DNA from: Escherichia phage NHEP11
Sequence record: PQ511149.1
DNA length: 64,000 bases
Strand: one strand, 5' to 3'
Part shown: positions 7,202-10,090 of the stretch, in pieces
Position numbering within the stretch: position 1 is the first letter of the stretch
Layout of the letters: the number at the start of each line of letters is the position of its first letter
The notes under the pieces: model-generated
The model's database searches: none
Told to the model about the DNA's origin: nothing
What the model saw: the letters and a program-made list of their open reading frames with translations, nothing else
Translations under genes and position numbers: made by a program

Positions 7202-7603
7202 TTATAGATTCGGTTTATATGATTTAAATGTTTCGAATTCGCCTTTATTCATAAGAGCTTTGAATTCGTCAGGACGCATAGCTTTGTCGTCGATAATCCA
7301 ATCATATACTGGTTTATGTGTTAGCAAATTATGGTACTTCAAACCAATGTTTTCCAAGTTCTGAATCAGACTTGGGAGAATGTCAATTGCTATACGACCA
7401 GGACCTACTGACTTCATACCGCGAGCAGTGTAAAGCGTTATTGTATGCCCTGCATCATACAGGGCATTAATGGCAGATACCATTTCGACGTCTGGTTTGA
7501 AGTTCACGTAATCACGATTGTTATTCCACTCTGTTATACAATCATCGACATCAAAACAAAGATTAAGCATGTTTTCTACACGGTGCATTAGATTCGTTCC
7601 CAT
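7202..7603 (-). CDS. HAD-superfamily phosphatase
   Basis: 133 aa; HAD motif I FDVDDCIT, motif II T in ITLYTARG, motif III/IV HKPVYDWIIDDKA. Confidence 0.7.
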   Translation of the reverse strand: MGTNLMHRVENMLNLCFDVDDCITEWNNNRDYVNFKPDVEMVSAINALYDAGHTITLYTARGMKSVGPGRIAIDILPSLIQNLENIGLKYHNLLTHKPVYDWIIDDKAMRPDEFKALMNKGEFETFKSYKPNL

Positions 7604-9273
7604 TGATGAGTGATATCGCCACCGATTGGACGATAGGAAACACCAGTTTCTTTATCAGTTAGTACCCATTTACCAGGATTTTTTGTAATCAGAGTAGCCG
7701 TTACAGGTTCTGCTACATCATAACTAATAGAGCCGTCTTGAAGTACACGGCCCATGTTACGTAATTGCTTAGTCAGAAGTTCCATACCTTTATAATATGC
7801 GGCTACCGCTTTAAGTGGATTATTCTTGAAATAACCACCTAATGCAATCCAGATAATTGCTACAGCCAAATGATGATACTCGTTAAATGAACTCATCTTT
7901 CCATATTTGTAAACTAATGGATTGATGTTAATAGTCACATTACAAGTTGTTTCGTCAATAGTAAACTGTCCCCAGGTCGGATTAGCGTTGAATTCATCAT
8001 AACCTGAAACAGCATAAAGCACTTTAGCTTCATCGTACAATTTTGGCCCGTAAATCTTGGTTTCGCCAAAATATCCACGAGGGTCGATAAACTTGACTTC
8101 ACCGTTATCAGTAATCATAGTATTACTGAAGTTCGGGTCACCATGAATAACAGAGTACTGTCCCTGAGAACGGTTATGATAACGAATAAGATGTTCTAAA
8201 GCTTGTTTCAGCATTGGCTTCAGACGTCCAATCTTAGTGTAGTTCACGTGTGTGATTTTACCAAATGAATCAATCAATGGCTGAATGCTTTCACAACGAT
8301 CAATAACTTTCGTATAGAACTCTTTAGTGAAATCACGGCGAACAGTTTCAGGACTTACAAAATAAGTGTCTGTGCTGAATTTCAGTGCATCTAAAATTGC
8401 ATCAATAATTTGTGGACGAGCAAGGCTTGATTTGGATTTAATATATTCAAATGCTGGTTTGCCTTTAATACGTTCCATTTCAAAGTTATTTTCATTAACA
8501 GAAACTAACTGAGGAACTGAATCTGATTTCACTTTAAGATACCATGAAATCTCATCTTTCTGAAGAGCTCGACCCTGTTCGGTTAATGCGAATTTAGTTA
8601 CAGTTTCTTCACCAATTTCAACTGCATTAAAACTACGATTAAGTTCACGAACTTCATGAGCTTTTTCAAGTTTAGGCATATCACCTAAATCAATTAGATT
8701 CATAAGCTCTGATTTATTGAATGCACTGCCGTAAAGGAATTCTACGAAATCACGTCCTTTGCAGTATTCATGAATTTCCTCATCAGTAGAACCCATATAG
8801 AATTCCCAGTCTTTGAACTGATAAATTCCTACAACATTACCACCTGTTGAACCTACGTTAGTGATATTTTCACCGTCGAAATTATATCGACATTCGTCAC
8901 CCTTAACATAGATTGCGTTAACATTCCAAGACCATGAACCAAAATCAGGAATAATATCACACCAGTTAACAATTACATTATGGCCATCTAAATCTTTGTG
9001 TAATTTAGCAAGAGCATAAGCAGAACCATACGCTTCATCAACTGTACGAATAGTCACATTGAACCCTTCTTGCTCACAATAAGCTCGAACAGTTTCAGCA
9101 AATTTTGAATGAACTACTACAATAATTTCATCTGCGCCAAGGTCAGAATAAATTGTATACAAATTGCTCAGAATAGTGTCTTGTTTATAGTTAACAAGCA
9201 CCTTAGGAATATGATGCGTTATTGGATACAAACGAGTTGCCAGTCCAGCACCAAGAATAACAGCTTTTTTCAT
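7588..9273 (-). CDS. bifunctional sugar-1-phosphate nucleotidyltransferase / APH-family (anomeric sugar) kinase
   Basis: 561 aa; N-terminus ILGAGLATRL is a GxGxRL nucleotidyltransferase motif; C-terminus HGDPNFSN...IDPRG is a Brenner/APH-choline-kinase-type motif. Confidence 0.8.
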   Translation of the reverse strand: MKKAVILGAGLATRLYPITHHIPKVLVNYKQDTILSNLYTIYSDLGADEIIVVVHSKFAETVRAYCEQEGFNVTIRTVDEAYGSAYALAKLHKDLDGHNVIVNWCDIIPDFGSWSWNVNAIYVKGDECRYNFDGENITNVGSTGGNVVGIYQFKDWEFYMGSTDEEIHEYCKGRDFVEFLYGSAFNKSELMNLIDLGDMPKLEKAHEVRELNRSFNAVEIGEETVTKFALTEQGRALQKDEISWYLKVKSDSVPQLVSVNENNFEMERIKGKPAFEYIKSKSSLARPQIIDAILDALKFSTDTYFVSPETVRRDFTKEFYTKVIDRCESIQPLIDSFGKITHVNYTKIGRLKPMLKQALEHLIRYHNRSQGQYSVIHGDPNFSNTMITDNGEVKFIDPRGYFGETKIYGPKLYDEAKVLYAVSGYDEFNANPTWGQFTIDETTCNVTININPLVYKYGKMSSFNEYHHLAVAIIWIALGGYFKNNPLKAVAAYYKGMELLTKQLRNMGRVLQDGSISYDVAEPVTATLITKNPGKWVLTDKETGVSYRPIGGDITHQWERI

Positions 9274-9314
9274 GTTGTGGTCCTCATTGGTAAGTAGGAG
9301 TATTGTACACTATT

Positions 9315-9458
9315 CTAGTTAAAGCATTCATACTTTGCTTGTAGTCCAATCATAATCCATCCAATTACAAGTGTTGGAATCATTACTGGAGCCGTTAAGC
9401 TCCAGTAGATAGTCATGACAAGCATCAATAGTAAAAGTCCTATTGTTATTGCTTTCAT
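9315..9458 (-). CDS. small membrane protein (47 aa), below ORF-track threshold
   Basis: Hand translation MKAITIGLLLLMLVMTIYWSLTAPVMIPTLVIGWIMIGLQAKYECFN; ATG overlaps the SIS gene stop (ATGA); two hydrophobic segments. Confidence 0.4.
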   Translation of the reverse strand: MKAITIGLLLLMLVMTIYWSLTAPVMIPTLVIGWIMIGLQAKYECFN

Positions 9459-10090
9459 TGTTCGCCTCGTAACATGGCACCTAGTGCACCGCCAGGGTGG
9501 AACTTAAGGAAGTCATTAGAGGTAAATCCACGCTCAGACGAAAGGTTGATAGCAAAAGTATCGATAAGCGCTAACAACAATGTAGTGGACATAGTCGGAG
9601 CCAGAGAATTCTCATCAACCTCTACTGCGATGCCTGTACAGAAAGAGTAATCAAAAAGGGCTTCATTTTCTTGTGGAATGTCTGGGTTACAATGCAACAG
9701 AATCTGTTTGACGTTCGGACGAATCATTTTAAGATGCTTAGCCACGCCTATCATTTCTTCAGTTTTACCAGAACGACTAATATGAATCAACACATCATTA
9801 GGCGCAATGAATCCTGCATCACCGTGAGAATAATGCCCAGTGTTCAAGTACATACTCGGGATACCGAGTGAAGCAAATGTCTCAGAAGCTTTAGTTGCAA
9901 TATTAGCATTCTTACCAACACCTGTAATAATTACTCGGCTTTCATAATTACTAAGTCCCGGGCGTCGAAGAGTTTCTAGAATAGCATTATAACGAGCAGG
10001 GTTTTGACTAATTACTTTGGCCATAGCGGCCAAAGAAGAAGCTTGTTTTATGATTGCGTCAATAGCGATAGTAATAGGAGTAGTTTTCAT
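9455..10090 (-). CDS. SIS-domain sugar-phosphate isomerase, KdsD/GutQ-like (arabinose-5-phosphate isomerase-like, no CBS domains)
   Basis: 211 aa; GVGKNANIA...SHGDAGFI...ISRSGKTEE...LAPTMSTT...FHPGGALG aligns with the E. coli KdsD SIS domain as recalled. Confidence 0.8.
   Translation of the reverse strand: MKTTPITIAIDAIIKQASSLAAMAKVISQNPARYNAILETLRRPGLSNYESRVIITGVGKNANIATKASETFASLGIPSMYLNTGHYSHGDAGFIAPNDVLIHISRSGKTEEMIGVAKHLKMIRPNVKQILLHCNPDIPQENEALFDYSFCTGIAVEVDENSLAPTMSTTLLLALIDTFAINLSSERGFTSNDFLKFHPGGALGAMLRGEQ

Follow-up and report, generated by a model that had tools for sequence, protein, structure and literature searches.

A probable UDP-arabinofuranose module for DNA hypermodification in the RB69-like Escherichia phage NHEP11

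In bacteriophage T4, a homologue of thymidylate synthase modifies deoxycytidine monophosphate (dCMP), and glycosyltransferases decorate the base, 5-hydroxymethylcytosine. The sugar is taken from host uridine diphosphate (UDP)-glucose, and no sugar-activation genes are needed. In Escherichia phage RB69, arabinose was found in the DNA, and ORF055c and ORF53_52c were proposed as genes for UDP-arabinose (Thomas et al. 2018, PMC6024577). Lee et al. 2026 (PMC13326640) identified the RB69 base as arabinosyl-5-hydroxycytosine and demonstrated the activity of gp48, a 5-hydroxy-dCMP synthase using O2 and a flavin. In the pathway of the same authors, gp55 converts ribulose-5-phosphate to arabinofuranose-5-phosphate, and the C-terminal domain of gp52:53 produces arabinofuranose-1,5-bisphosphate, which gp51 strips of its 5-phosphate before the N-terminal domain of gp52:53 forms UDP-arabinofuranose. 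For the afh cluster of Escherichia phage HY126, that paper summarizes work of He et al. 2026, in which, according to this summary, AfhE is an arabinose-5-phosphate kinase and AfhF a Mg2+-dependent D-arabinose-1,5-bisphosphate phosphatase. Here we describe the corresponding locus in a stretch of 64,000 nucleotides from Escherichia phage NHEP11 (PQ511149.1; the window in what follows), where positions 7202-10090 encode a SIS-domain protein of 211 aa, a bifunctional enzyme of 561 aa and a minimal HAD phosphatase. All genes of the window treated below lie on its minus strand.

We put the probability at about 0.9 that these three genes constitute the sugar-activation module of arabinosyl-5-hydroxycytosine DNA hypermodification in RB69-type phages. 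In the proposed pathway, the SIS enzyme, which lacks CBS domains, would convert host D-ribulose-5-phosphate to D-arabinose-5-phosphate, a step assigned by homology and one whose product host KdsD and GutQ would make as well. Phosphorylation of C1 by the kinase domain at the C-terminus of the 561-aa protein would then give D-arabinofuranose-1,5-bisphosphate, from which the 128-aa HAD phosphatase would take off the 5-phosphate. With its N-terminal nucleotidyltransferase domain, the 561-aa protein would combine the remaining arabinofuranose-1-phosphate with uridine triphosphate to form UDP-D-arabinofuranose. Glycosyltransferases, including a 299-aa protein of the cluster, would move the arabinose onto 5-hydroxycytosine in the phage DNA, a base that the neighbouring thymidylate-synthase homologue would supply as 5-hydroxy-dCMP. 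DNA modified in this way would resist restriction enzymes and bacterial nucleases. The general scheme, a thymidylate-synthase homologue acting on dCMP followed by glycosyltransferases, is that of T4 and is encoded in the same genomic neighbourhood, whereas the base is 5-hydroxycytosine and the sugar needs its own pathway. The phage would carry that pathway because Enterobacteriaceae are not known to have the arabinose donor nucleotide (PMC13326640, discussion).

The window belongs to an RB69-like Mosigvirus. Megablast of positions 5900-10200 showed 98.3% DNA identity to RB69 and retrieved 153 phage records with at least 80% query coverage, at identities of up to 98.5%. Open reading frames (ORFs) near the module include those for a 903-aa family-B DNA polymerase, clamp loader subunits, RegA and UvsX, and positions 7202-10090 correspond to ORF051c-ORF055c in RB69 coordinates, between gene 43 and uvsX. 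Compared with the HY126 cluster, gene order is identical and protein identity ranges from 97 to 100% (SIS protein 99%, bifunctional enzyme 97%, HAD protein 99%, U32-family protein 100%, thymidylate-synthase homologue 98%, glycosyltransferase 98%, kinase 99%). The content of the afh cluster, with AfhE and AfhF, equals that of RB69 gp55, gp52:53 and gp51, and the window differs at strain level only. Common to window, HY126 and RB69 are the order of the genes between the DNA polymerase gene (gp43) and uvsX and the proposed UDP-arabinofuranose pathway. Since the cluster is 97-100% identical to that of HY126 and the HAD protein is 99% identical to PDB entry 9iqw over its full length, the biochemical work on HY126 bears directly on the window. 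As summarized in PMC13326640, the kinase, phosphatase and nucleotidyltransferase steps are experimental for HY126 AfhE and AfhF, which are 97-99% identical to the proteins described here.

The phosphatase gene (7202..7588; AfhF orthologue, RB69 gp51) lies downstream of the gene for the AfhE-type protein, as in HY126. Its closest structural counterpart, 9iqw, carries the title 'phage HY126 encoded D-arabinose 1,5-diphosphate phosphatase AfhF'; PDB entry 1xpj was matched as well. These two make up the protein's own family, and GmhB (3l8h) and KdsC (1k1e) are weak, remote fold neighbours, GmhB being the first characterized one outside that family (E 1.3e-3, TM 0.47, 14% identity). A Pfam scan of this small protein gave no match. 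In NCBIfam it matched TIGR01689, 'capsule biosynthesis phosphatase' (EcbF/BcbF), with an E-value of 1.9e-13; by sequence, it is related to this subfamily and not a member of it. The HAD motifs D13-x-D15-x-T17, T54 (within T-A-R), K92 and D100-D101 (128-aa numbering) are invariant or nearly so in 20 diverse homologues. The preliminary description of the locus, made from the DNA letters, had given a HAD protein of 133 aa with all four motifs. The motifs stand, and the length should be corrected. The longest ORF starts at 7603, inside the upstream gene, and yields 133 aa, while the ATG at 7588 gives 128 aa. This second ATG shares bases with the stop codon of the 561-aa ORF, in the sequence TAATG at 7586-7590. 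The annotations of RB69 and HY126 and the 9iqw construct all have 128 aa, and homologues measure 119-130 aa. On the strength of the overlap, the annotations, the crystallized construct and the homologue lengths, the gene is taken as 7202-7588 rather than 7202-7603, and ATG 7588 is probably the true start. The stop-start overlap suggests translational coupling of the phosphatase to the bifunctional enzyme.

The bifunctional enzyme (7588..9273; AfhE orthologue, RB69 ORF53_52c) was assigned from Pfam, NCBIfam and invariant motifs. Pfam NTP_transferase covers residues 3-99, NCBIfam nucleotidyltransferase models match over residues 2-109, and the C-terminal half shows weak Pfam matches at 308-409 to fructosamine, ecdysteroid and RIO-type kinases. 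In ten homologues, down to 27% identity, the transferase signature G10, R14 and K24 (G-x-G-x-x-R plus Lys24), the catalytic loop of the kinase, H377-G-D379-x4-N384, and its D-x-x-G metal site, D397-P-R-G400, are invariant. Judged by these features, the protein consists of an N-terminal sugar-1-phosphate nucleotidyltransferase and a C-terminal sugar kinase of the APH/choline-kinase-like type. Sequence comparison with the PDB found no near-identical structure for the AfhE-type protein.

The SIS protein (9455..10090; RB69 gp55 orthologue) is predicted to be a D-arabinose-5-phosphate isomerase from its Pfam domain, its alignment with KdsD and its structural model. It is 100% identical to the RB69 protein. 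SIS (E 1e-10) is its only Pfam domain; the scan gave no CBS match, and E. coli K-12 KdsD scanned likewise returned SIS plus CBS. By BLASTP the protein aligns with residues 23-202 of the 328 residues of KdsD at 36% identity (E 1e-33), and it stops nine residues past the HPGG motif (HPGGALG is shared), at about KdsD position 206. Likewise, it matches profile positions 2-153 of 268 in the NCBIfam KpsF/GutQ model. The preliminary description of a KdsD-like SIS protein of 211 aa without the C-terminal CBS pair is borne out by these data. Around 120 homologues among the matches listed are all about 200-260 aa long with SIS as the sole Pfam domain. In the BLASTP alignment, phage residues K60, H89, E112, E157 and H198 correspond to KdsD K59, H88, E111, E152 and H193, the active-site residues according to the 2xhz study; none of the five phage residues varies among 20 phage homologues with identities as low as 38%.

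No near-identical structure for the SIS protein was found by sequence comparison with the PDB. An AlphaFold model built on the alignment of these 20 homologues (predicted local distance difference test score, pLDDT, 93.9) has as its best PDB matches the SIS domain of E. coli KdsD, 2xhz (TM 0.90, root-mean-square deviation 2.1 A), 5uqi and 3etn. Arabinose-5-phosphate isomerases are matched with E-values around 1e-13, and GmhA follows at about 5e-7, at rank 37 or thereabouts or lower. Both 5uqi (E. coli CFT073 c3406, with arabinose-5-phosphate bound) and 3etn (Bacteroides fragilis) are SIS-only proteins of about 200 aa that end just after HPGG, like the phage protein. They are its top sequence and structure matches, yet they share only 29-32% identity with it and are cellular enzymes from capsule or lipopolysaccharide contexts. 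Because these two are single-domain proteins, the CBS-less state is already known in the isomerase family. Missing CBS domains exclude the canonical two-domain architecture of KdsD and GutQ, not the catalytic family. A literature search on single-domain arabinose-5-phosphate isomerases found nothing relevant.

To determine how widely the module occurs, 50,697 phage records were searched by tblastn, which returned 356 records for the HAD protein, 368 for the bifunctional enzyme, 269 for the SIS protein and 221 for the U32-family protein. A presence matrix was built for loci from eight T4-like lineages. In all eight, the genes for the bifunctional enzyme, the HAD phosphatase, the thymidylate-synthase homologue, the glycosyltransferase and the kinase occur together. 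Four of the eight (Mosigvirus, Yersinia TG1, Acinetobacter Acj9 and Pseudomonas PspYZU05) carry the SIS gene; about one quarter of the phages carrying the cluster lack it. As phages without it retain the other cluster genes, the SIS protein is not required for the pathway, and the co-occurrence in the sampled lineages marks the bifunctional enzyme as the obligate partner of the phosphatase and the isomerase as accessory. Phages lacking the SIS gene presumably rely on host KdsD or GutQ, enzymes of 3-deoxy-D-manno-octulosonate (Kdo) synthesis, for arabinose-5-phosphate. Matches to the 561-aa protein in Vibrio, Tenacibaculum and Chryseobacterium phages (27-28% identity) were set aside as another system, having no HAD, thymidylate-synthase-like or glycosyltransferase genes nearby.

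Some observations weigh against a UDP-arabinofuranose module as outlined here. The SIS gene is missing, with the rest of the cluster kept, in Klebsiella Marfavirus (Kpn BM7), Dhakavirus JS98, Providencia PSTCR6 and Shewanella Thanatos-1. Its product, whose role as arabinose-5-phosphate isomerase is a prediction from homology, scores under the curated NCBIfam cutoffs (112.9 against 203.7 bits for TIGR00393, 107.7 against 505 for the KdsD equivalog); the KpsF and KdsD models include the CBS half that the phage protein lacks. The HAD protein also stays below the curated cutoff of TIGR01689, at 50.5 against 162 bits. The activities of AfhE and AfhF are taken here from the summary in PMC13326640 and from a PDB title. 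Finally, Table 1 of PMC13326640 orders the steps otherwise, from arabinose-5-phosphate through free arabinose to arabinose-1-phosphate.

This last order amounts to a free-sugar route, in which the HAD protein would make free arabinose from arabinose-5-phosphate, the kinase would convert it to arabinose-1-phosphate and the nucleotidyltransferase would form UDP-arabinose. The table says as much, with the entry 'dephosphorylates Araf5p to Ara' for gp51 and the entry 'phosphorylates Ara to Araf1p' for the C-terminal domain of gp52:53. The route also resembles kinase/pyrophosphorylase fusions acting on free sugars, which are established elsewhere. Bacteroides Fkp is one such fusion. However, in its text the paper that holds the table follows He et al. 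in calling AfhE an arabinose-5-phosphate kinase and in letting AfhF act on arabinofuranose-1,5-bisphosphate, and the PDB entry with 99% identity to the HAD protein bears the name D-arabinose 1,5-diphosphate phosphatase. We therefore regard the free-sugar order as unlikely and retain the bisphosphate order.

Even less probable is a role of the SIS and HAD genes as auxiliary genes for host envelope sugars, with KdsD and KdsC equivalents serving Kdo or capsule synthesis. Annotations such as 'capsule biosynthesis protein' and KpsF/GutQ point in this direction, and in E. coli kdsD and kdsC are adjacent. The bacterial relatives do so too. A search of bacterial genomes with the HAD alignment gave 18 loci. 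In four Chitinophagaceae genomes, a mini-HAD gene (110 aa) is followed immediately by a gene for a CBS-less SIS protein of 197 aa and then by a KdsA-type synthase gene (about 8001-9660 of the loci); the Chitinophaga mini-HAD is 38% identical to the phage protein (E 7.6e-20). In two of these loci a KdsB-type cytidylyltransferase gene was detected as well, on the other strand and upstream, and in Pelagibacter a mini-HAD homologue precedes a cytidylyltransferase gene. One locus labelled 'bacterium' among those with HAD homologues is in reality a T4-like phage contig of 167 kb. The Chitinophagaceae locus is apparently a Kdo operon with the mini-HAD in the position of KdsC and, from this context, in a putative KdsC-like role.

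In the phage cluster, on the other hand, no KdsA or KdsB homologue was found, and sequence comparison of the HAD protein with E. coli KdsC gave no significant match (E 0.24). The phage genes are co-conserved with a 5-hydroxy-dCMP synthase, a DNA glycosyltransferase and a nucleotide kinase; DNA of RB69-type phages carries arabinose, and the characterized orthologue acts on arabinose-1,5-bisphosphate, not on Kdo-8-phosphate. What the phage module shares with KdsD/KdsC and with the Chitinophagaceae operon is that an arabinose-5-phosphate isomerase adjoins a HAD sugar-phosphate phosphatase. The phosphorylated end of Kdo-8-phosphate derives from arabinose-5-phosphate; the enzyme would thus meet much the same substrate end in both compounds, and so recruitment of such a phosphatase from a Kdo operon to arabinose-1,5-bisphosphate would be chemically plausible. 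Kdo operons are hence a possible bacterial origin of the SIS/HAD pair.

That the pair consists of true GmhA and GmhB homologues acting on heptose phosphates is extremely improbable, and we rejected membership in these families on the fold ranking and the lack of family matches: although the HAD protein is labelled 'phosphoheptose isomerase' in RefSeq and phrog_1238 and finds GmhB first among characterized folds beyond its own family, that label sits on a phosphatase and is a misannotation, NCBIfam gave no GmhA or GmhB match, the SIS model ranks arabinose-5-phosphate isomerases far ahead of GmhA, the GmhB match is weak, and the sugar in the DNA is arabinose.

As an analogy, the comparison with ADP-heptose synthesis is informative. 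In both GmhA-HldE-GmhB and the UDP-arabinofuranose module, an isomerase turns a ketose phosphate into an aldose phosphate, an anomeric kinase makes the bisphosphate, a HAD enzyme removes the distal phosphate, and the protein that bears the kinase completes the nucleotidyl transfer with its other domain; the SIS and HAD superfamilies are shared. They differ in a pentose and UDP instead of a heptose and ADP and in a product destined for DNA, not lipopolysaccharide. The phage SIS protein belongs to the KdsD branch and not to GmhA, and the HAD protein to the 1xpj/TIGR01689 group. HldE joins a ribokinase-like kinase to a cytidylyltransferase-like domain, unlike the APH/choline-kinase-like kinase and the GlmU/RmlA-like transferase of the phage. 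Thus, by analogy, the module parallels GmhA-HldE-GmhB in logic and is built from different protein families. The preliminary description had already proposed that an isomerase and a phosphatase removing one phosphate work together in the manner of GmhA and GmhB, which, taken as an analogy, fits the published biochemistry of the 97-99% identical orthologues. Its suggestion of arabinose-1,5-bisphosphate as substrate agrees with AfhF in PMC13326640 and with the 9iqw title. Two ORFs were placed correctly within 7202-10090, but the 561-aa gene and a 47-aa ORF between them went unmentioned, as did the phage context and the purpose in DNA hypermodification. The omitted 561-aa gene is essential to the logic of the pathway, its product playing what would be the HldE role, anomeric kinase and nucleotidyltransferase in one, and completing the analogy.

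The 47-aa ORF (9315..9458), whose ATG overlaps the stop codon of the SIS gene (ATGA), encodes a protein of high hydropathy over most of its length. It is annotated with 47 aa in HY126, and kept in RB69, where the annotation gives only 36 aa; Yersinia TG1 and JS98 have versions that are 55-57% identical. A site resembling T4 middle promoters (9302..9326, minus strand; MotA box TGCTTTA, 12 nt, TACAAT) precedes the 561-aa gene by about 28 nt, with a GAGGA ribosome-binding site after it. The pattern TGCTTNA, 10-14 nt, TANNNT occurs at 19 sites in the window against 6.1 expected, among them 4126-4152 and 7996-8021, both on the minus strand. One MotA-type site is located directly upstream of the 561-aa gene and another upstream of the kinase gene. 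From their likeness to T4 middle promoters, these sites are candidate MotA-dependent middle promoters.

Further downstream in the cluster lie three genes of the proposed modification pathway. The thymidylate-synthase homologue of 238 aa (4991..5707; Pfam Thymidylat_synt) is 99% identical to RB69 gp48, nearly identical to PDB entries 9iqc, 9ir2 and 9iqu, and would be the 5-hydroxy-dCMP synthase. The 299-aa protein (4092..4991; RB69 gp46:47) is a putative DNA arabinosyltransferase 1, by its match to phrog_3891 and by Table 1 of PMC13326640. A P-loop nucleotide kinase of 182 aa (3542..4090; RB69 gp45) matches phrog_761, 'thymidylate kinase', and takes its label from the same table. The RB69 reference record (NC_004928) splits ORF052c/053c and ORF046c/047c, while the window has undivided ORFs of 561 and 299 aa in their place. 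Thomas et al. 2018 (PMC6024577) attributed the split of ORF052c and ORF053c to a one-base sequencing error, and the intact ORFs of the window agree with the sequencing-error corrections in PMC6024577 and PMC13326640. Public names for several of the proteins are misleading: the HAD protein appears as 'phosphoheptose isomerase' (RefSeq, phrog_1238), the bifunctional enzyme as 'bifunctional protein GlmU' or 'hypothetical protein', and the U32-family protein as 'peptidase'. These three labels are propagated misannotations.

Directly downstream of the HAD gene, at 5985..7160, lies the gene for the U32-family protein gp50 (RB69 numbering), a putative Fe-S protein by Pfam and hhalign with a likely start at ATG 7145, giving 386 aa. 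Pfam Peptidase_U32 is matched with an E-value of 7.5e-11. The protein is labelled 'sugar or heterocycle reductase' in a table of PMC13326640; a literature search found no paper linking gp50 to hydroxylation. Characterized U32 enzymes that are not proteases are Fe-S proteins required for O2-independent hydroxylations: UbiU and UbiV take oxygen from prephenate, TrhP is needed for 5-hydroxyuridine (ho5U) in tRNA, and RlhA is the 23S rRNA 5-hydroxycytidine synthase. Comparison of the gp50 subfamily with UbiU, TrhP, RlhA and UbiV by hhalign gave a probability of 95.4% (E 1.8e-8, 204 columns). In this alignment gp50 C203, C209 and C233 (386-aa numbering) fall on UbiU C169, C176 and C232, and UbiU C193 has no gp50 counterpart; these UbiU cysteines we take to be the 4Fe-4S ligands. 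MAFFT put the third cysteine elsewhere, and its mapping is used here only where hhalign agrees; on this basis the Fe-S cysteines would be partly conserved. For UbiU C176, the role as cluster ligand is documented (PMC10990095). The gp50 subfamily has ten invariant cysteines. Pairwise comparison by BLAST and phmmer with UbiU, UbiV, RlhA and TrhP was not significant, which sets gp50 apart from the E. coli enzymes as a distinct subfamily, and a PDB sequence search with gp50 found nothing.

In all 221 phage records with a match, gp50 is at least 80% identical, whereas the neighbouring proteins fall to 42-62%. No Acinetobacter phage is among the matches listed, and none of the 221 matches is below 80% identity. 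As an Acinetobacter-phage orthologue would be expected under this value, the lack of such matches supports its absence there. The gene was not found near the cluster in the Pseudomonas phage either. Acinetobacter and Pseudomonas hosts are strict aerobes. Outside the phage records, more than 200 homologues with 48-58% identity were found on phage-like metagenomic contigs. All eight U32 contexts examined have replication and nucleotide-metabolism genes around them, including genes for dCMP deaminase, thymidylate and adenylate kinases, dUTPase, uracil-DNA glycosylase, DnaE, ThyX, deoxynucleoside kinase and nucleoside deoxyribosyltransferase; Pfam detected no ThyA-type gene in any of the eight. 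In one of them, genes for a glycosyltransferase, a TET-associated glycosyltransferase (33.9 bits, cutoff 27.5), a dUTPase and a UDP-galactopyranose mutase flank the U32 gene. One metagenomic phage contig has genes for a DAHP-synthase/KdsA-family protein and an NAD-dependent epimerase after the U32 gene (about 8145-9804). This arrangement is a hint of either a sugar pathway or a connection with the shikimate/prephenate route.

We tentatively suggest, at odds somewhat short of even, that gp50 is an O2-independent Fe-S hydroxylase of the prephenate type that would give 5-hydroxy-dCMP or 5-hydroxycytosine without oxygen. It may back up the thymidylate-synthase-like, O2- and flavin-dependent enzyme, in analogy to TrhP, which backs up TrhO for ho5U in tRNA. 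The suggestion arises because the thymidylate-synthase-like route needs O2 and because RB69, which has gp50, and DLP3, which does not, carry the same kind of modified base (PMC13326640). Also in its favour are the O2-independent chemistry of the characterized non-protease U32 enzymes, the partly conserved cysteines, the high identity across phage records, the apparent absence from phages of the strictly aerobic hosts and the nucleotide-metabolism contexts of the metagenomic homologues. The absence of gp50 from JS98-like coliphages counts against the suggestion. If it holds, gut phages would keep their DNA arabinosylated in anoxic hosts, and uncultivated phages with this U32 subfamily would use an unrecognized anaerobic route to hydroxylated, glycosylated DNA pyrimidines.

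The modification system as such is already known: its genes were proposed in 2018, its enzymes were characterized in 2025-2026 and the structure of the phosphatase is in the PDB. What is added here is modest, namely an isomerase that is dispensable in several lineages, relatives of the module in Kdo operons and a lead on the U32 protein. The corrected names are of use for public records of the HAD, AfhE-type and U32 proteins. For the biology of these phages, the module explains, on the reading favoured above, how a T4-like phage makes UDP-D-arabinofuranose. With it, the phage puts arabinosylated 5-hydroxycytosine in the place of every cytosine; many restriction enzymes are blocked by this replacement, which also alters how defence systems see the phage. 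This has a bearing on phage-host arms races and on the choice and engineering of therapeutic phages.

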